Part shown: positions 2,235-30,415 of the stretch, piece after piece
Layout of the letters: each line of letters opens with the position of its first letter
How positions within the stretch are numbered: position 1 is the stretch's first letter
DNA from: a virus
DNA: 64,000 nt
IMG/VR virus record: IMGVR_UViG_3300018494_000126
Strand: one strand, 5' to 3'
Made by a program: the position numbers and the translations under genes
Notes under the pieces: model-generated
The model's database searches: none
Told to the model about the DNA's origin: nothing
Seen by the model: the letters and a program-made list of their open reading frames with translations, nothing else

Positions 2235-2756
2235 ATGAAATATTATATTGCGGATACTCATTTCGGTCATGAAAACATTATACGTTTAAGCAATAGACCA
2301 TTTCAAACGGTTGAGGAAATGGATAATGTAATGATTGCAAAATGGAATGAAAAAATTACAGAAAATGATGATGTATATATTTTAGGGGATTTTTCTTATA
2401 AAGGAAAAGACCCTATTTTTTATTTGTCACAATTGAAGGGACGGAAATATTTAATTATTGGCAACCATGATACCAAATTATTAAAAAATCCAGACCATAG
2501 ACAATATTTTGAAGAAATAAATTCTATTTTAATGGTGGATGATGGAGGCACGCAAATCTGTTGTTGTCATTATCCAATGGTAGAATGGAACGGTTATTAT
2601 CGTAACGTGTTACATTTCTATGGTCATGTTCATAACACTTTTCATAATGCTACAACTCAATATGCAGCTCAGATGCCCAGAGCTTTTAATGTTGGAGCAG
2701 ATATAATAGGATTTACGCCCAGAACTTTAAAAGAAATATTGGAAGGGAGATATTAA
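2235..2756 (+). CDS. metallophosphoesterase (calcineurin-like)
   Basis: N-terminal DTHFGH, then GDFSYKG and GNHD metal-binding motifs typical of the calcineurin-like phosphoesterase fold. Confidence 0.75.
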   Translation: MKYYIADTHFGHENIIRLSNRPFQTVEEMDNVMIAKWNEKITENDDVYILGDFSYKGKDPIFYLSQLKGRKYLIIGNHDTKLLKNPDHRQYFEEINSILMVDDGGTQICCCHYPMVEWNGYYRNVLHFYGHVHNTFHNATTQYAAQMPRAFNVGADIIGFTPRTLKEILEGRY

Positions 2757-2911
2757 ATGAGTACAGAATTCATTTGTATAGCGTGCGGTATTTGTGCTTT
2801 ATGGCTAATAGTTTGGCTGTATGACGTATATGACAGACGTAAAAGTTAATGAATACGTTTGTTTTAATAAAAAAGTAAACCAATAATATTTGCTTAGAAA
2901 GGAGGATAAAT

Positions 2912-3196
2912 ATGAGAGCTTTTGATTTAGGACAGTTGTATGTTACACGAGGTATAGCCACAGTAATGGAAGAAGGTAATTCTGATTTTAAAAGAGATTT
3001 GTCACAGGCTTTAACACAATATAAAGCATGTGATTGGGGAATTACCTGTACAGATGACCAGCAGTTGAACAACGAAGCAGTCTTAAACGGAGATGATAGA
3101 ATATTAGCAGTTTATCCTACCTGTCGCGGTAATATTTGGATAATTACTGAATGGGACAGAAGTGTTACCACAATATTATTTCCTAATGAATATTAG
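2912..3196 (+). CDS. hypothetical protein
   Basis: 94-aa ORF with AGGAGGATAAATATG ribosome-binding site. Confidence 0.45.
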   Translation: MRAFDLGQLYVTRGIATVMEEGNSDFKRDLSQALTQYKACDWGITCTDDQQLNNEAVLNGDDRILAVYPTCRGNIWIITEWDRSVTTILFPNEY

Positions 3197-3211
3197 AAAA
3201 CGGGAGGATAA

Positions 3212-3724
3212 ATGACAGAACAGCAGAAAGAACTCGTTGTTAATCATCATAATTTAATTTATTTTGTGATTAACAATATGCATTTACCAGAAGAAGAATA
3301 TTATGATATTGTAGCCATTGCTTTGTGTGAAGCAGCAATTAAATATGATGATAGCAAAGGGAAATTTTCTACTTTTGCTGTAAACATGTGTCAGAATGTA
3401 GTTAAAAATCATATTAAGAGTATGTATGGTACAAAAAAACGAGGTGTTTCAGTTTTATTACCTACAGGTGGAGAAATTGATAACTCATCAGTTGTTAAAG
3501 GTAAACATGCTTCTGAATATGATTTTACATCCGATATTTGTGCACGAGAATTTTTAGATTACTTTGTTCAACACAAATTAACAGAACGCGAACAGAAAGT
3601 ATTGACCTATGTATTAAACAGTGTCCCGTATCGTACCATTGGAGAAAAAATGAATATTAGTACAGGCACTGTGGTAAATACGTTAAAATCTGTGCAACGG
3701 AAATATGTACGATGCTGTGCTTAA
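3212..3724 (+). CDS. sigma-70 family RNA polymerase sigma factor (phage-encoded)
   Basis: Region 2 hallmark GKFSTFA; C-terminal region-4-like HTH (YRTIGEKMNISTGTV). Confidence 0.8.
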   Translation: MTEQQKELVVNHHNLIYFVINNMHLPEEEYYDIVAIALCEAAIKYDDSKGKFSTFAVNMCQNVVKNHIKSMYGTKKRGVSVLLPTGGEIDNSSVVKGKHASEYDFTSDICAREFLDYFVQHKLTEREQKVLTYVLNSVPYRTIGEKMNISTGTVVNTLKSVQRKYVRCCA

Positions 3725-3735
3725 TCTAGAAAGGA

Positions 3736-4011
3736 GTGGTAAAGATGAATAATGTAAGACGAAAGGCGATAGATGGGGTAAAAAGGGCGCTTCAGCCGTT
3801 ATTAATAGAATTGTCTATTATTTTAAGTGAAGTTACCGATTTATTTACAGAGGAAGAAGAAGCATTAGAGAATATTCCTGAAAATTTACAGGACACGGAA
3901 AGATATGAACAAACAGAAAACGCAGTAGATTGTTTAGAGATAGTAATTGATACAATTAGTGAATTCTTAGACGCGGACTTAATTGATACTTTAACAGAAG
4001 CTCAAGGCTAA
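3736..4011 (+). CDS. hypothetical acidic protein
   Basis: 91 aa, strongly acidic C-terminal half (EEEEALENIPENLQDTE...). Confidence 0.45.
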   Translation: MVKMNNVRRKAIDGVKRALQPLLIELSIILSEVTDLFTEEEEALENIPENLQDTERYEQTENAVDCLEIVIDTISEFLDADLIDTLTEAQG

Positions 4012-4019
4012 TTAAGGAG

Positions 4020-4259
4020 GTGTTGACAATGAATAAAAAGTTTGTATATTATAGTTATAAAAATCAAGATGGGTTATTATTGTTTATTCCTCTATCTTTA
4101 ATGTGTTTATTATGTAAAGATGGAATTATTGGATTCATTCTTTGTTGGATTATATATGCTGGGTATTGCTGTTTTAATAATTATGAATTATCACAAGACC
4201 CTTATATACAAGAGATAAGAAAAATTGATGCACAGAACCAACAGAGAAAGGGGAAATAA
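4020..4259 (+). CDS. small membrane protein
   Basis: 79 aa with two hydrophobic segments. Confidence 0.4.
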   Translation: MLTMNKKFVYYSYKNQDGLLLFIPLSLMCLLCKDGIIGFILCWIIYAGYCCFNNYELSQDPYIQEIRKIDAQNQQRKGK

Positions 4260-4262
4260 CCT

Positions 4263-5300
4263 ATGAATGGTAGATTTGAAACTCAATTATGTTATCAGGA
4301 TAAAATTGATAAAAAATTAGAAAGTCTGCCTCAATATGTAAAAGATTATTGTTATTCTTTTTCTTATGGTGCTCAAATTAAAACTGCTCATAAATATATT
4401 GGAATAATTGAGAACTTTTATAAAAGTATAAAAGAAGATTCAACCACAGTGACACCAGAAGAAGCAGCACAGAATGTAGCACGTTATATGGTTGCTAAAA
4501 AGACCAAAACGGTTATACAAAATGGTGTTGCTAAAGTTACTCCCACATCAATTTTTTATCAACAGTTAATTTATACTGTATTAAAAAACTTTATGGGGTA
4601 TTTATACTCAAATAAGTTAATCGAAATTAATCCAATAACAGAAATTAAACGTCCAAAAGGAGAAGATAAGGTACAACGGCCTGAGATTACTCCTGATGAA
4701 TTGCAACAAATGTTGGGCGCTGTATTATTTGGGGCTGGTTCTACACGAGCTCGTAAAATTCAGAATAAATGGAAATCAAGAGATTTCTTGATTTTATTAT
4801 TATTTATTTTGACTGGTATGCGTCGTAGTGCGTTAAGCGAAATTAATGTAGAAGATATTAATTTGGAAACGGGAGAATTAACAGTTATTGATAAGGGGCG
4901 AAAAACCCATGTTTATCAAATCAGTTCCATTATGCAATATGTAAATGATTGGTTATATGATAGAGAAGAACTGTTGCGTGAATGGGGTGTTCAGCTGGAT
5001 GCGTTATTTATTTCTCGACAAAAAGCGCGATTATCAACAGATAGTATAGCAGAAATTGTTCATAAATACTCAGAAGCGGTTTTAGGCGAAGGGATTTCAC
5101 CGCATAAAATACGTTATGCATTTGTAACTAATATTATAAAGGAAACTGGAGATATAGAATTTGCACGACGAGCGGTAGGTCATTCTAATATTAGTACTAC
5201 CCAGCGTTATGTAGTTATGAATGATTCTGATGTAAAACAGCGTTCGGCCGATATCATTGTTAAACAAATTCATGATGGTTTTGTCATGGCTAAAGATTAA
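4263..5300 (+). CDS. tyrosine recombinase / integrase (XerC/D-like)
   Basis: Box I TGMRRSAL; box II HKIRYAFVT...GHSNISTTQRYV (R-H-R-Y catalytic signature). Confidence 0.85.
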   Translation: MNGRFETQLCYQDKIDKKLESLPQYVKDYCYSFSYGAQIKTAHKYIGIIENFYKSIKEDSTTVTPEEAAQNVARYMVAKKTKTVIQNGVAKVTPTSIFYQQLIYTVLKNFMGYLYSNKLIEINPITEIKRPKGEDKVQRPEITPDELQQMLGAVLFGAGSTRARKIQNKWKSRDFLILLLFILTGMRRSALSEINVEDINLETGELTVIDKGRKTHVYQISSIMQYVNDWLYDREELLREWGVQLDALFISRQKARLSTDSIAEIVHKYSEAVLGEGISPHKIRYAFVTNIIKETGDIEFARRAVGHSNISTTQRYVVMNDSDVKQRSADIIVKQIHDGFVMAKD

Positions 5301-11507: not shown

Positions 11508-12089
11508 ATGGCGAACAAACGTAAGTGTGCCTTATGTGGCGAATATATAGAAGCTACGGATAATTTAATGCCGTATAAAACACGTTATGTGCACACTACG
11601 TGTTTTAACGCCAGCATGAAAGCCTTAGCATCTAATAAACAAGAACAATTAGCAGAAAAGGCAAAGTCAAAAAAACGCCAAACTGTTAAAGCACCAAAGG
11701 AAATTGCAAAACCTATAAGCGAAGAAGAATATAAAGCAAAACAAAAATTCTTTGATTATATGTCGAGCGTGTTAGAGGTGGAGCAATTAGGTGCAAAATT
11801 TTATACATTAAGTGCTAGGTATGTAGAGCAATACAATTCTTCTTGGGAAGAAATGTATAATATATTTTATTGGCATCTGGACATAATGCAAAACGAACCA
11901 GTAGGTGATTGTATAGGTCTATTTCCTTACATATTAGATGAGGGAAGACAATTCTATACAGCGCTCAAAACAATAGAAGAGCAAAATAGGGAAATACAAG
12001 TTAATAACTTTTATCACGAAAAAGTGATAAAAATTAACCCTCACAAGAAGAAAAATATTAAACAGATGAATATCGAAGATATAGTCTAG
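11508..12089 (+). CDS. zinc-finger protein (possible helicase loader or replication organiser)
   Basis: N-terminal CALCGEYIE...HTTCF; Lys-rich linker; immediately upstream of the DnaB-like gene. Confidence 0.45.
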   Translation: MANKRKCALCGEYIEATDNLMPYKTRYVHTTCFNASMKALASNKQEQLAEKAKSKKRQTVKAPKEIAKPISEEEYKAKQKFFDYMSSVLEVEQLGAKFYTLSARYVEQYNSSWEEMYNIFYWHLDIMQNEPVGDCIGLFPYILDEGRQFYTALKTIEEQNREIQVNNFYHEKVIKINPHKKKNIKQMNIEDIV

Positions 12090-16082: not shown

Positions 16083-16154
16083 TCCCCTTTATCCAAGCGG
16101 TTAAGGAACTCGGCTTTGACCCGAGGAGCGCTGGTTCGAATCCAGCAAGGGGAG
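16083..16154 (+). tRNA. tRNA-Gln (anticodon TTG)
   Basis: Manual fold: acceptor TCCCCTT/AAGGGGA, D-loop with GG, anticodon stem CTCGG/CCGAG, loop CTTTGAC, T-arm GCTGG-TTCGAAT-CCAGC, discriminator G. Confidence 0.8.
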
Positions 16155-16219: not shown

Positions 16220-16858
16220 ATGACAAAAGAGACAATGACAATTCATTCGGCTTTAGCTAGTTTAAAAGTATTGGATTCTAGAATTATTAATGCGATTGAT
16301 AAGAATTCATACGTAACACAGGTTAAAAATAATGTTCAGCAGATTAGCGGTGTACCATTGGCTGAGAAAAAAGAGCAGATGAAGGCTGGATTTGAATCTG
16401 TTACAGATTTAATTCGTAGAAGAGCAGCTCTTAAAAAAGCAATTGTTCTTTCTAACGCAAAGACAATCGTAACAATTGGTGGAGTGGAATATACGGTGGC
16501 TGAGGCTATTGAAATGAAAAACCATGGCATCGAATTTGACACAATCTTGTTAGCAGAATTACAGAGACAGTACATGTCAGCACAGGCTACTATTATGAAA
16601 CATAATGAATCACTGGATAAGAAAGCTGATGATTATGTTACTGGTATGCTTGGTAACAAAGAGGGTCGTACAAATGTAGACGAGTTTGACAAGGCTCGTA
16701 AAACATATATTGAGGCCAATACTGCGGTATTAGTTGACCCGATTGACGTACATAAGCAGATTGAGTTATTAACACAGAAAATTGATAATTTTACAGCAGA
16801 AGTTGATAGTGCTTTATCTGTCAGCAATGCTCTGACTATTATCGAAATTGAATATTAA
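16220..16858 (+). CDS. hypothetical protein
   Basis: 212-aa ORF with AAAGGAGAACGAGCTATG ribosome-binding site. Confidence 0.5.
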   Translation: MTKETMTIHSALASLKVLDSRIINAIDKNSYVTQVKNNVQQISGVPLAEKKEQMKAGFESVTDLIRRRAALKKAIVLSNAKTIVTIGGVEYTVAEAIEMKNHGIEFDTILLAELQRQYMSAQATIMKHNESLDKKADDYVTGMLGNKEGRTNVDEFDKARKTYIEANTAVLVDPIDVHKQIELLTQKIDNFTAEVDSALSVSNALTIIEIEY

Positions 16859-17325
16859 ATGTAATTAATCATATTCCTTGCTTATCGAAAATCTTAAATT
16901 ACAAACCATGGTTCTTTTGTGGGTGCAGAATCATGTAAAAAACAAAACAAACCCTCTCTAAAAATTATTCAAGTAAATTTACTTCTACAGAGGAACGTAA
17001 GTTTAATAGAAGATTTGGGCTGATATTAATGACCAAAACAACAGATTATTTGGTTAAATAGAGAGCGCTTAACATCTATTTAAATCTAATGGTGAGACTG
17101 TAAAGTTTAAAATTTAACTTTTATAGTTTAAAGAGTAACGATAAAAGCTTATTTCTATCAAAGTTTAATTACCTATTCGTAGGTATTTAACGCTTAAATC
17201 GTAACGTTTTTTCAAATCCATGGCTTAGGTTATAAGTATGTTTGTATTAGACTTTAGATTAGACACATGGCTGATAAGTAGGGAATATATCATTTGAACA
17301 TAAAGAAAAATAGAAAGCGGTAAAT

Positions 17326-21609: not shown

Positions 21610-21933
21610 GTATTAATTTTCATGCAACGTGGGTAAACAAACCTGCTCACGTAAAATTCGGTGAACGTATGCAAAAACGGTGTGTAACATTTTTGTTATG
21701 CTAACGGTGAAAGCCTAAGTCGTAAGATAAGGTAATACCGTGCCAAGCCTTATACATAAGGAAGGTGTAACGACTATTACGTACATCTGAGATTAGCACA
21801 GATGGAAGTGCCGAATAGAGTATTTTACTCTAAAGATATAGTCTAATCCCTATAGAAATACCGAGAAATCGGGGGTATAAATGATGGATTTAATCGTTCT
21901 CATTGTCTTGCTTACAGTTTATTGGGATTGCAG
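21610..21933 (+). mobile_element. group I intron in dnaE (no ORF)
   Basis: Untranslatable ~320-nt gap inside a conserved DnaE motif. Contains the group I S-element-like AAGATATAGTC preceded by GACTA, and a 5' motif (GTAAAATTCGGTGAAC) shared with the nrdD intron. Boundaries approximate: U before 5' site, G at 21933. Confidence 0.6.
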
Positions 21934-26840: not shown

Positions 26841-28043
26841 ATGAGGATTATTAAAAAAGATGGCACATTAGAAGATTATAATGAACAAAAAATAATTAAT
26901 GCTTGTAATAAAGCTGCTAGACGAGCAATGGTAGAATTAAATGCTAATGATTATCAGTTGATTTGTAACGCCGTCTGGGAAAAACTCGTTGAAAATGATT
27001 TAGAAGAAACTGAAATTTATGAAATGCATAATATCGTTGAAGCCGTATTGGAAGAATTATATCCAATAGTGGGGAAAATGTATAAAGAATATAGAAATTA
27101 TAAAAAAGACTTTGTTCATATGATGGATAAAGTATACGCCAGAAGTCAAGCAATTAGATACATTGGTGATAAGAGTAATGCTAATACTGATTCTGCTTTG
27201 GTGGCAACAAAGAGAAGTTTAATTTATAACGAACTGAGCAGTGAATTATATAAGAAGTTTTTCTTAACACTTGATGAAAAGCAAGCAATGAAAGATGGGT
27301 ACATCTATATCCATGATAGGAGTGCTAGACTTGATTCCTTTAATTGCTGTTTGATGCGTGTAGGCCATATTATGCATAACGGTTTTGAAATGGGGAACGT
27401 TTGGTATAACGAGCCTAATTCACTTGATACTGCATTCGATGTTATGGGAGATATTATCCTTTCAACAGCTGCACAGCAATACGGAGGGTTTACTGTACCA
27501 GAAGTTGATAAGATTTTAGCACCTTATGCAGAGAAGTCTTATAGAAAATATATTGAAGAATATAGAAAAGTTGAAAATGATGTATTAAGTCAAGTGTCTT
27601 GGAATGGTCGAGTTAAAGACGAAGGAGCTATAAAATATGCTCTTGATAAAGTCAGAAGAGACTTTGAACAAGGTTGGCAAGGCATTGAATATAAGTTAAA
27701 TACAGTTGGTTCTTCTAGGGGCGATTACCCATTCGTTACCATGACTATAGGATTAGCAACAGATATATTTGGCAAAATGGCCGCTATTACTTTACTCCAA
27801 GTACATAGTGAGGGCCAAGGTAAGAAAGGATTTAAGCGTCCTGTTTTATTCCCTAAGATTGTATTCTTATATGATAAAGAACTTCACGGAGATGGTTCTG
27901 AACAGTATCCAAATGCAGATGTATTTAATGCAGGAATTGATTGTAGTAGTAAAACCATGTATCCTGATTGGTTATCTTTAACTGGTAATGGATATGTACC
28001 TGAAATGTATAAGAAATATAAAAGAGTGATTAGTCCAATGGGT
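26841..28043 (+). CDS. nrdD: anaerobic ribonucleoside-triphosphate reductase NrdD, exon 1
   Basis: N-terminal ATP-cone (MRIIKKDGTLEDYNEQKIINA), class III RNR core, ends ...YKRVISPMG. Confidence 0.8.
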
Positions 28044-28943
28044 TAATATGATAGCTCATGTAAAACTCGGTGAACTTATATATATAAGGTGTCAATTCAA
28101 CGAATAGTAACCATAGGAAATGATGGCTAATGAATTGGCTAACAGGGGAAGTCATTATTATGATAATCCTGTGCTAATATTCAACGTATTCACTTTTAAA
28201 GAAGGTGAATTTTATATAGAAACAATAATTATAAATAAAGAAATTCAAGGTTTTGAGAGATATCGAATCAACATTAACGGTGTGATTTATGATACTAAAC
28301 GAAACAAAGAAATTGGTCAGTGGATAGATACCGTTGGGTATTACCAATGTGTTTTAAGAGATTCAAATGGTAAGAAATGTTATAAACGTGTACATAGGTT
28401 GGTCGCCAATACGTTTATTCCTAATCCAAATAATCTACCACAAGTCAATCATAAAGATGGAAATAAGTTAAATAATAATATAGATAACTTAGAGTGGTGT
28501 ACAAATAGTGATAACACCCAACATGGTTATGATAACAAATTATATAAATATAAGTCAAGATGTCATGCGATAAACGTCTATTATAAGAAAAATGGTAAAT
28601 ATTTTAAAACTTATAAATCTATAAGAAGTATGTGTGAAGATTTACATATTAATAGAAAGACAGTAACCATGATATTAAAAGATGAAAAATTAACTAATAA
28701 TTATGATTATTTATTTGAATACGTTGAAGAAAGTCAAGAGACTATCGAAAGCATAGCATAAGAGAAAAACTTATGCGAAGAAGCGAGTAGAGTACATATA
28801 AGGTGAAAGTCCTTATGTGGAAGTGCCGAGCATCTATTATTTGGTAATAGAATAATAGATGAAGATATAGTCCAAACTGCGAAAGCAGTTAGTGTCGTGC
28901 ATTCCTTTCTCCATGGTATGAAAGAGGTGGAATGCATCCTGCG
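28044..28943 (+). mobile_element. group I intron in nrdD carrying an HNH homing endonuclease ORF
   Basis: 5' end CATGTAAAACTCGGTGAACTTAT is homologous to the dnaE intron 5' end; 3' part has GGAAGTGCCGAG and the S-like AAGATATAGTCC; interrupts an otherwise continuous NrdD; boundaries approximate. Confidence 0.6.
28120..28761 (+). CDS. HNH homing endonuclease (intron-encoded)
   Basis: VHRLVANTF...NHKDGNKLNNNIDNLEWCT..NTQHG HNH_3-type motif plus NUMOD-like regions; lies inside the nrdD intron. Confidence 0.8.
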   Translation: MMANELANRGSHYYDNPVLIFNVFTFKEGEFYIETIIINKEIQGFERYRININGVIYDTKRNKEIGQWIDTVGYYQCVLRDSNGKKCYKRVHRLVANTFIPNPNNLPQVNHKDGNKLNNNIDNLEWCTNSDNTQHGYDNKLYKYKSRCHAINVYYKKNGKYFKTYKSIRSMCEDLHINRKTVTMILKDEKLTNNYDYLFEYVEESQETIESIA

Positions 28944-29852
28944 GATGAGGATGACAAGCCAGTATTTGAAGGAAGATGTAATTTAGGTGTTGTATCGCTT
29001 AATTTACCGATGATTTTAGCAAAATCAAGACAAGAATCAAAAGACTTTTTTGAAGTATTGGAACATTATCTTGAACTTATCAGAGGATTACATAAGCGTA
29101 CTTATGATTATATTGGAGAACTTCGAGCGAGTGTAAATCCTATTGCTTTCTGTGAGGGTGGTTTATATGGTGGTAATTTAAAACCAGAAGAGAAGATTAA
29201 GTCAATTCTTCCTCCTATGACAATTAGTTATGGTATTACTGCTCTAAACGAATTACAGAGATTATATAATGGTAACTCTATTAGAGAAGATGGACAATTT
29301 GCTTTAGAAGTAATGCAGTATATTCAGAACTATGTAGATAGAATTAAAGAAGAAGATAATATTCTATATGCAATATATGGAACGCCTGCTGAGAGCCTTT
29401 GTGGTTTACAAGTAGAACAGTTCCGTAAAATGTATGGGATTATCGAAAATGTGTCAGATAAGCCTTATGTAAGTAATAGTTTTCACTGTCATGTATCTGA
29501 AGAAATGTCACCTATTGAAAAACAAGATAAAGAAGAAAGATTTTGGGATTATTTCAATGGTGGAAAAATTCAGTATGTCAGATATAACTTAGGTTATAAC
29601 AAGGAAGCAATTAAAACTCTCGTGCTTAGAGCTATGGATAAAGGGTTTTATGAGGGGGTAAATCTTGCAATGTGTTATTGTGAAGATTGTGGCTATCAGC
29701 AAGTGGAAATGGATGTCTGCCCTAAATGTGGAAGTTCCATGATTACGAAAATTGACCGTATGAATGGCTATTTAGGATTCACTAGAGTACATGGTGATAC
29801 ACGTTATAACGAAGCAAAGAATGCGGAAATCGCGGATAGAGTGAGTATGTAA
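28944..29852 (+). CDS. nrdD: anaerobic ribonucleotide reductase NrdD, exon 2
   Basis: GRCNLGVVSLNLP motif, Zn-ribbon CEDCG...CPKCG, C-terminal RMNGYLG glycyl-radical-like motif; exon start approximate. Confidence 0.75.
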   Translation, partial: DEDDKPVFEGRCNLGVVSLNLPMILAKSRQESKDFFEVLEHYLELIRGLHKRTYDYIGELRASVNPIAFCEGGLYGGNLKPEEKIKSILPPMTISYGITALNELQRLYNGNSIREDGQFALEVMQYIQNYVDRIKEEDNILYAIYGTPAESLCGLQVEQFRKMYGIIENVSDKPYVSNSFHCHVSEEMSPIEKQDKEERFWDYFNGGKIQYVRYNLGYNKEAIKTLVLRAMDKGFYEGVNLAMCYCEDCGYQQVEMDVCPKCGSSMITKIDRMNGYLGFTRVHGDTRYNEAKNAEIADRVSM

Positions 29853-29902
29853 GGGGGCATCCCCTTACTACTCTAATCAAACAGATAAGGAGAACAAACA
29901 AT

Positions 29903-30415
29903 ATGAATACAGATATATTATATTTTGCAAAGGTGCGACCTGATGCAATTATTCCAACTAAAAATGAAGAAGATGCAGGCTATGATTTATACGCTAATTT
30001 TCCGCAGGAATGTATTTATATAGAATCTGGACAAACAGTAATGATTCCTACTGGTATAGCAACAGCATTTAGTGATGATTATGTGTTTATTTTAAAAGAA
30101 CGTGGTTCAACAGGAACGAAAGGAATGTCACAGATGGCTGGAGTAATTGATTCTGGTTATCGTGGAGAAATTGTTGCCCCTATTACCAATTTGGGCAAAC
30201 GCGATATTATCATTTCCAAATTATCTAGAGAAGAACATATACACAAATATGGGCTATATTATTCAGATTGTCTTTTCTATCCTTATTCTAAAGCAATTGC
30301 TCAAGGCATCTTATTTAAACTCCCAAAGCTCAATACAGAAGAAATTAGTTATGATGAATTATCCAAAATTCCATCTCTTAGAGGTGTGGGTAAATTGGGT
30401 AGTAGCGGAAAGTAA
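29903..30415 (+). CDS. dut: dUTP diphosphatase
   Basis: dUTPase motifs AGYDL, ERGSTG, GVIDSGYRGE. Confidence 0.85.
   Translation: MNTDILYFAKVRPDAIIPTKNEEDAGYDLYANFPQECIYIESGQTVMIPTGIATAFSDDYVFILKERGSTGTKGMSQMAGVIDSGYRGEIVAPITNLGKRDIIISKLSREEHIHKYGLYYSDCLFYPYSKAIAQGILFKLPKLNTEEISYDELSKIPSLRGVGKLGSSGK

Follow-up and report, generated by a model that had tools for sequence, protein, structure and literature searches.

The virus record IMGVR_UViG_3300018494_000126 from IMG/VR, of which a stretch of 64,000 nucleotides (nt) was analyzed (the window), contains at positions 26841-29852 a split nrdD gene, which encodes a class III ribonucleotide reductase (RNR). Coordinates of genes, introns and helices are those of the window and refer to the + strand. 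The element that splits nrdD is very probably a mobile phage group I intron of the IA2 type, which is located between the codons for Gly401 and Cys402 and is predicted to splice and to home. A preliminary description of this DNA had proposed that a group I intron, which belongs to the same family as an intron in dnaE and carries an HNH endonuclease, interrupts nrdD, and the continuity of the exons, the complete fold and the matches of family profiles all agree with that proposal. What is new is the insertion site relative to that of phage T4, together with the I-HmuI-type endonuclease; split nrdD genes in phages were already known.

Exon 1 (26841-28043, 401 codons) encodes an ATP-cone and the N-terminal half of the NRDD core and ends with ..RVISPMG, its last base being U28043. 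Exon 2 (28893-29852, 319 codons and the stop codon) starts with Cys402 (CRAFLSPWYERGG..) and encodes a Zn-ribbon (CEDCG..CPKCG) and the glycyl-radical motif DRMNGYLG. With Pfam, an ATP-cone (46.5 bits) and positions 2-262 of the NRDD profile (153.5 bits) were found in exon 1, and positions 264-560 of the same profile (210.3 bits) in exon 2. Thus, the two NrdD pieces abut exactly on the profile, and the proposed separation of an ATP-cone/core half (..ISPMG) from a Zn-ribbon/glycyl-radical half is confirmed. The spacer between the halves is present as described, but its size is 849 nt (28044-28892) and not about 900 nt.

Joining 26841-28043 to 28893-29852 resulted in a NrdD of 720 amino acids (aa) without internal stop (..KRVISPMG|CRAFLSPWYERGG..). 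In a large protein database, more than 100 uninterrupted NrdD clusters, some of them named Lachnospiraceae or Acetatifactor, were 86-91% identical to this spliced protein over 100% of its length, and the uninterrupted gene of the faecal phage MT835545 was 69% identical over residues 3-717. The spliced protein could also be aligned across the junction with the solved NrdDs PDB 9D3X and 1H78 (T4). In the T4 alignment Cys402 corresponds to C290 (T4 SPMGCRSFLS, common motif SPMGCR), the established thiyl-radical cysteine, which forms the tip of the finger loop, and DRMNGYLG corresponds to RRTCGYLG, in which G580 is the established radical site. Since Cys402 falls on C290, the intron is located at the thiyl-radical cysteine. 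When the whole locus was compared by megablast with 50,697 phage records, no match was obtained, which indicates that the deposited genomes include no close relative of this phage.

At the locus, gene callers predict three individual open reading frames (ORFs), of 401, 212 and 306 aa. These ORFs could also have arisen if a free-standing HNH gene had split nrdD into two polypeptides that reassemble without RNA splicing, as for NrdA/mobE of Aeromonas phage Aeh1, and the GAGG-like sequence that precedes the ATG at 28932 would fit such an origin. However, this explanation is highly improbable. The first ORF (26841-28046, 401 aa) ends at a TAA stop codon (28044-46) directly 3' of exon 1, and the frame of exon 2 is open from 28893, with its first ATG at 28932 (ORF 28932-29852). 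The 13 codons CRAFLSPWYERGG, including that of the catalytic Cys402, are located upstream of this ATG and no start codon precedes them; exon 2 therefore has no start that would keep Cys402, and a two-piece enzyme would be left without its thiyl-radical residue. The GAGG merely encodes the conserved ERGG and is also present in intron-less homologs. Moreover, a complete group I fold flanks the endonuclease ORF, and an ORF-less version of 326 nt is found at the same site in another IMG/VR phage (L027).

The boundaries of the intron were fixed by exon continuity, by the P1 and P10 pairings and by the terminal G. So defined, the intron comprises 28044-28892, from the base after the U of the 5' splice site to the terminal G28892, which is directly followed by the UGU codon of Cys402. 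P1 is formed by the exon sequence AUGGGU (28038-43) and the internal guide GCUCAU (28054-59) with six of six pairs, including the wobble U28043.G28054 at the 5' splice site, and P10 pairs AUGAUA (28048-53) with UGUCGU of exon 2 (28893-98), again with six of six pairs. The motif CATGTAAAACTCGGTGAAC is located near the 5' end of the intron (28057-28075) and includes the 5' strand of P3 (CUCGGUG, 28066-28072), which pairs with UGCCGAG (28824-28830). Two family-specific hairpins follow between this strand and P4: hpA (28075-79/28084-88) and hpB, which consists of an outer stem (28093-98/28132-37), an inner stem (28111-14/28123-26) and the invariant loop AGGAAAUG (28115-22). The central domain comprises P4 (28142-47/28167-72), P5 (28152-55/28160-63), the base of P6 (28173-75/28732-34) and P6a (28180-92/28716-28), a perfect stem of 13 bp whose strands form an inverted repeat that is 100% complementary across 523 nt. 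The P6a loop formed by these 523 nt holds the endonuclease ORF.

On the 3' side, P7 is a pseudoknot between GACUA (28740-44) and UAGUC (28868-72), for which the invariant R/S sequences are the sole support. It encloses P7.1 (28756-62/28770-76), P7.2 (28795-803/28811-19, 9 bp) and P8 (28831-41/28851-61, 11 bp), and J8/7 (AAGAUA, 28862-67) leads from P8 into its 3' strand. The hairpin P9 (ACUGC-GAAA-GCAGU, 28876-89) precedes the terminal G. The two motifs that had been noticed at the end of the spacer are present as described, GGAAGTGCCGAG at 28819-28830 and AAGATATAGTCC at 28862-28873. The R/S core element AAGAUAUAGUC is present and invariant within the family sample, and the R/S core sequences of the nrdD intron are identical to those of the family. 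For folding, the ORF loop was deleted, which left a mini-intron of 334 nt. Its unconstrained minimum free energy fold contained P3, hpA, hpB, P4, P5, P6a, P7.1, P7.2, P8 and P9, with z = -7.06 compared to shuffled sequences. P7 is absent from this fold and from the RNAalifold consensus because it is a pseudoknot. A group I fold is thus present, and with P1 and its U.G pair, P10, P3-P9, P7.1/P7.2 and a terminal G, all group I elements can be assigned; by these features the insert is classed as an IA2-like group I intron.

Relatives of the ribozyme were collected by a pattern scan of IMG/VR for the P3' and S elements, which resulted in 49 loci, and by blastn against cultured phages, which resulted in 94 records from Bacillus, Clostridium, Staphylococcus, Lactobacillus, Enterococcus, Enterocloster and Escherichia phages. 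An nhmmer profile derived from five introns that lack an ORF and occur in other phages, in genes other than nrdD, matched the window at 28057-28208 (E 7.7e-18), at 28721-28882 (E 3.9e-29) and at the dnaE intron (E 3.7e-24), and gave no other match in the window at E<=1. In general, nhmmer profiles that did not contain the window sequence matched both intron halves, with E values of 8e-18 to 9e-43. From a MAFFT alignment of 11 sequences that was not fitted to any structure, RNAalifold recovered P3, hpA, P4, P7.2 and P8, with double compensatory changes in 19 of 34 pairs, among them changes in P3 and in P4 (columns 126-131/161-166). In P3 (columns 44-49/340-345), the pair adjoining the retrieval pattern is C-G in seven sequences and U-A in four. 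Clostridium phage CS01, which was found by blastn and not by the pattern, has the P3 strands CCACGUG/UGCGUGG and adds three further compensated pairs.

The remaining pairings behave in the same way. In six other family members, among them the dnaE intron, CS01, L003, L016 and L050, the P1 guide and the exon co-vary. Stems equivalent to P6a have wholly different sequences in the window, L004, L006 and CS01 and are nevertheless fully complementary. P7.1 and P7.2 are preserved in L006, L027 and CS01 although their sequences differ there, P9 in these three and in L012, and the stems of hpA and hpB in eight to nine family members. In a table of helices, which was used without the entries for P7.2 of L007 and P8 of L029 (these mismatched the sequences), complementarity was kept with different sequences in every helix.

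The two hairpins between P3 and P4 were also seen in L003, L004, L006, L012, L027, L050, L061 (CS01) and L060 (Lactobacillus phage Semele), and were absent from L029 and from the T4 nrdD intron. The 8-nt loop of hpB, AGGAAAUG, which resembles a Shine-Dalgarno sequence with an AUG, is invariant even in ORF-less introns. A literature search for a named P3.1/P3.2 element gave nothing usable. Another locus of the family sample, L016 (IMGVR_UViG_3300019763_000013, 2671-4318), contains four RF00028 group I introns above the gathering threshold within 1.7 kb on one strand, which points to one very heavily interrupted gene.

The ORF in the P6a loop (28120-28761; 213 aa as the longest ORF) encodes a candidate HNH homing endonuclease that resembles I-HmuI. 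The preliminary description had classified it as an HNH_3/NUMOD protein; the HNH_3 domain scored 38.2 bits, above the Pfam cutoff of 24.8, but NUMOD1 gave a weak match of 20.3 bits, which is under its cutoff of 22.8. The ORF product matched PHROG 59, annotated as HNH endonuclease, with E 4e-42, and I-HmuI (PDB 1U3E) with E 2.4e-13; residues 40-201 align to residues 4-170 (of 174) of the latter, including the C-terminal region. The catalytic residues, namely the His of (D/N)HKDG, the Asn of NL(E/R)W and the next Asn, are conserved. From its sequence, the ORF is identified as a full-length I-HmuI homolog of the HNH homing-endonuclease type, for which nicking or cleavage of DNA is predicted. Its last ~15 codons run through the 3' strand of P6a, J6/7 and the 5' strand of P7 into P7.1. 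Gene callers place its start at the ATG at 28123. Further downstream, an in-frame ATA (28216) lies 3' of the Shine-Dalgarno-like GAAGGTGA (28201-08); a canonical start codon is absent at this place. As a family-wide start of the endonuclease, the AUG of the loop AGGAAAUG was considered and rejected, as it opens merely 3-30 codons in 10 of 11 distinct modules.

The same intron family was identified at the identical ATGGGT|TGT junction in four IMG/VR phages (L012, L006, L004 and L027), so that it occupies one site in highly divergent nrdD genes. For example, the NrdD of L012, which is an unrelated phage, is only ~25-30% identical to that of the window, while its intron is 82% identical in the ribozyme and 87% in the HNH protein. 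The intron of L006 has a more distant HNH protein, and that of L027 has no ORF. In L004 (1643-2134) and L022 the same ribozyme is found at the same nrdD junction with an endonuclease of PHROG 2081, which has no similarity to the window ORF; such a different endonuclease family on the same ribozyme indicates that ORFs have been exchanged within one intron lineage. An intron that is far more conserved than its host gene and has exchangeable ORFs bears the signature of homing and ORF shuffling.

The Gly401 codon is GGT in five of five intron-bearing alleles, where it supplies the U for the P1 wobble. It is GGC, GGC and GGA in the three intron-less alleles that were examined, and GGG in an intein-bearing allele; the intron-less junction of the L064 type reads ..CCGATGGGC|TGCCGTGC.. 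The intein is of the LAGLIDADG type and interrupts a ~88% identical NrdD (P0063; L066:136-3375) exactly between SPMG and CRAF, which is the phosphodiester used by the intron. In another NrdD (P0021), a second type of intein was observed at the other active-site cysteine (..SFN|C..). The P0063 and P0021 NrdDs are ~88-91% identical to the spliced NrdD of the window.

From these data a possible, rather tentative joint reading is that Gly401|Cys402 of class III RNR is a shared homing hot-spot with mutual exclusion and that the insertion between P3 and P4 is functional. In phages and prophages of gut Firmicutes, three or more unrelated selfish cassettes may compete for the hot-spot, namely the I-HmuI-type intron, the same ribozyme with another HNH protein, and the LAGLIDADG intein. 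If it is such a hot-spot, occupancy by one cassette may protect the allele from the others. The P3-P4 insertion with its AGGAAAUG loop may couple ribosome binding to ribozyme folding or to endonuclease expression, or it may make a tertiary contact; alternatively, it may be a leftover.

For the intron as a whole the following course of events is proposed. The nrdD gene would be transcribed as one pre-mRNA, and unspliced RNA would yield merely a truncated product of 401 aa because of the TAA at 28044. The guide GCUCAU would pair with the exon sequence AUGGGU, and an exogenous G bound in P7 would attack after U28043. With exon 2 aligned by P10, the freed 3'-OH would then attack after G28892. Ligation of GGU to UGU (..CCAATGGGT|TGTCGTGCA..) would restore the ..SPMG-CRAF.. 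finger loop with its thiyl-radical cysteine. In co-infected cells, the HNH protein encoded by the intron, a relative of I-HmuI, would introduce a nick or a cut close to the junction in nrdD alleles that have no intron, and repair from the intron-containing copy would spread the intron by homing.

The preliminary description further suggested that the introns in dnaE and nrdD reflect a recent spread and that the ORF-less dnaE copy is a derivative. The dnaE intron (21635-21883) has no ORF and is recognized by Rfam RF00028 at 21643-21865. The spliced DnaE reads ..MQRG|YGFNRSH.. without a stop, and the alignment with L028, a homolog that is not interrupted, spans the junction. The motif at the start of both introns was described as the same; it is present in both, but CACGTAAAATTCGGTGAAC of the dnaE intron (21649-21667) is identical to CATGTAAAACTCGGTGAAC in 17 of 19 positions only. 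Both differences, one in P1 and one in P3, are matched by changes in the pairing partners. As members of one family with nearly identical guides (GCUCAU and GCUCAC), both located after an exon ending in ..UGGGU, the two introns might in principle be recent copies within the genome, formed by ectopic transposition or reverse splicing, of which the dnaE copy lost its ORF. Only a small chance is given to this explanation. The proposed comparison of the two introns showed ~57% identity over 218 aligned core positions, whereas the nrdD intron is 82% identical to that of L012, 75% to that of L004 and 75% to that of L050. Their architecture differs as well: the dnaE intron has no long hpB hairpin and only one P7.x hairpin, and the P5 receptor motif and P8/P9 are different. 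Furthermore, the introns most closely related to that of nrdD are located in other phages, at this very nrdD site. The low identity between the two introns and the closer relationship to foreign nrdD introns rather argue that each intron belongs to its own site-specific lineage, which moves between phages, so that neither a recent spread between the two genes nor the derivation of the dnaE copy is supported.

Two further assignments in the window were tried and rejected. The P3 of the dnaE intron as aligned by Rfam (UUUUGUUA) was replaced by AUUCGGUG/UGCCGAAU, which the family-wide covariation favoured. The 11-nt S element, AAGATATAGTC, occurs in a third exact copy at 12076-12086, which was not accepted as a third intron and was judged to be a chance match, as it is not accompanied by other intron motifs. 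It encodes the 3' end of the ORF 11508-12089, which lies between the AAA_24 gene and dnaB; a composition-based estimate gives ~0.09 expected chance matches.

The nrdG gene, encoding the NrdG activase, was reported as not visible near nrdD. Indeed, an ORF with the radical-SAM motif CxxxCxxC could be found neither in the window nor in ~16 kb of flanking sequence of the 131.5-kb source contig (~80 kb in total), while the same scan identified NrdG in T4, L012, L020, L027 and L034. In three of three relatives with 87-91% identical NrdD (L062, L064 and L066) the gene order is nrdD-nrdG-(small ORFs)-dut. In the window dut begins 50 nt 3' of nrdD (29852-29903) and nrdG is missing in between, so that nrdG has been lost from this position. 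Presumably the spliced NrdD would be activated by a host NrdG of the Lachnospiraceae type, as suggested by its ~87% identity to Lachnospiraceae-type NrdD.

Several observations weigh against the interpretation of the locus as a mobile, splicing intron in a functional nrdD. The absence of nrdG means that any use of spliced NrdD may be in question. A covariance-model search, which had been proposed as a check, detected the dnaE intron with 62.5 bits, but a focused scan with RF00028 matched the 3' half of the nrdD intron alone, with 28.9 bits (E 3.9e-5) and thus under the gathering threshold of 50 bits, and scans of the whole window (at gathering and at E<=0.1) did not report it. As P7 and the G-binding site do not vary within the sample, they have no support from covariation. 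The retrieval pattern fixed part of the 3' strand of P3 and the S element, which makes most of the relatives a biased sample. The true start of the endonuclease is uncertain, since homology to I-HmuI begins only at residue 40, a canonical start codon is missing immediately 5' of the domain, and in L012, a close relative, the frame is not open upstream. Finally, 21 of 21 contigs that were read with an identical 401-aa exon-1 product contain the intron, as do six of six places that were shown; no presence/absence polymorphism was seen in this phage lineage.

The low Rfam score can be explained by the 523-nt P6a loop with its ORF and by the P3-P4 hairpins, which break the model. ORF-less relatives that have the P3-P4 hairpins (L027, L003 and L050) are likewise under the gathering threshold, and compact members such as L029 (89 bits), L016 (85 bits) and the dnaE intron are above it. 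In the Rfam alignment of L029, the helix UUCGGUG/UGCCGAA is taken as P3.

Together, the low Rfam score, the lack of a radical-SAM ORF in ~80 kb and the missing nrdG between nrdD and dut, which relatives with 87-91% identical NrdD keep, would fit a decayed intron in a dead gene, that is, a relic that no longer splices within an nrdD pseudogene. This explanation is judged to be quite improbable. The two exons are intact, free of frameshifts and stops, and have remained 86-91% identical to full-length homologs. Pairing is complete in every ribozyme helix, among them P6a (13 bp), P8 (11 bp) and P7.2 (9 bp), and the R/S core is that of the family. The score has the explanation given above, and phages that carry nrdD without nrdG are common (PMC3653736).

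The source contig (Ga0224414_10001254, JGI 3300029705) is at least 131.5 kb long, and the window recurs in more than 20 assemblies. Its replication module encodes AAA_24, DnaB, a PD-(D/E)XK nuclease, DnaE, a RecD2-type helicase, NrdD and a dUTPase. Several tyrosine recombinases as well as the SPbeta-like markers YorF and an MrpR-like repressor were observed on the contig (window 4263-6300 and the flanks L059 and L058); the tyrosine recombinases, MrpR and YorF suggest that the sequence derives from a large temperate Firmicutes phage of ~130 kb. A near-threshold Rfam match to the RAGATH-27 RNA (RF03100; 67.7 bits with a gathering threshold of 76.1, E 5e-7) was found at 16874-16957 (+), just downstream of a tRNA (16083-16154) and an ORF at 16220-16858.

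For annotation, it is concluded that nrdD should be treated as one spliced gene, join(26841..28043,28893..29852), and not as two NrdD fragments and a stray HNH protein, a split-annotation error that is made in public gene calls and in the record of the cultured phage CS01. The locus provides another clean case of a homing element on the most conserved, indispensable codon of an enzyme in an essential pathway. As relatives carry empty, intron, ORF-less-intron, other-endonuclease and intein alleles of the same site, they form a convenient comparative set for the homing cycle. The knowledge of group I introns or of RNRs is not changed by this finding.

One of the closest known systems is the nrdD (sunY) intron of T4, which encodes I-TevII. 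It has the same host gene, the same ribozyme subgroup and the same layout (P1, no P2, GUAAAA, P3; P7.1/P7.2; GAGUAG..; AAGAUAUAGUC), and shares the GCUCAUGUAAAA lead-in, the S element and the identical internal guide GCUCAU with the intron of the window, with a core identity of ~45-55%. However, its insertion site corresponds to residue ~284 of the window NrdD, 118 codons upstream of the 401/402 site, and its core does not contain hpA and hpB. I-TevII is a GIY-YIG endonuclease (NC_000866 annotation) that is encoded downstream of the ribozyme core, whereas that of the window is an HNH protein encoded in P6a. Also, T4 has nrdG adjoining nrdD.

With respect to the endonuclease, the closest counterparts are the SPO1-type DNA-polymerase introns of Herelleviridae that encode I-HmuI, a strand-specific nickase of which the window protein is a full-length homolog. 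In Lactobacillus phage Semele, an intron-like spacer that splits the DNA polymerase is 71% identical to positions 18-130 of the window ribozyme, covering P3, hpA, hpB and P4. In both cases the host gene is a DNA polymerase and not nrdD.

The Clostridium sporogenes phages CS01-CS35 have an nrdD that is split by an HNH protein, and their intron is of the same family, with hpA, hpB with its AGGAAAUG loop, an HNH ORF closed by P6a, and P7.1/P7.2. The CS01 intron occupies a third nrdD site, which corresponds to residues 215/216 of the window NrdD (..QQFG|GFT..), and the sequences of its P1 and P3 are different and compensated. The GenBank record of CS01 (L061, PV788061.1; 1224-4099) contains two NrdD coding sequences and an HNH coding sequence with no intron, which are really one split nrdD, and ~25 records of CS-series phages have the same arrangement.

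Among phages in general, nrdD is the RNR gene that is most commonly split (PMC3653736). Of 104 genomes of the Jug jumbo phages of the gut, 95 have a fragmented nrdD, in which the inserts commonly encode endonuclease or intein-splicing domains, and splicing of this nrdD is supported by metatranscriptome reads (PMC12880540). The Jug phages have genomes of 360-402 kb, infect Bacteroides/Phocaeicola and have nrdD in multiple fragments; the window has a single intron, belongs to a contig of at least 131.5 kb and encodes a Lachnospiraceae-like NrdD. In SPbeta-type prophages, the introns of bnrdE/bnrdF and an intein are reportedly clustered at a conserved cysteine codon, as described by Lazarevic et al. 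That system concerns a class Ib RNR (nrdE/F) and the window a class III enzyme, but in both of them an RNR gene of temperate Firmicutes phages serves as a refuge for introns and inteins at a conserved cysteine.

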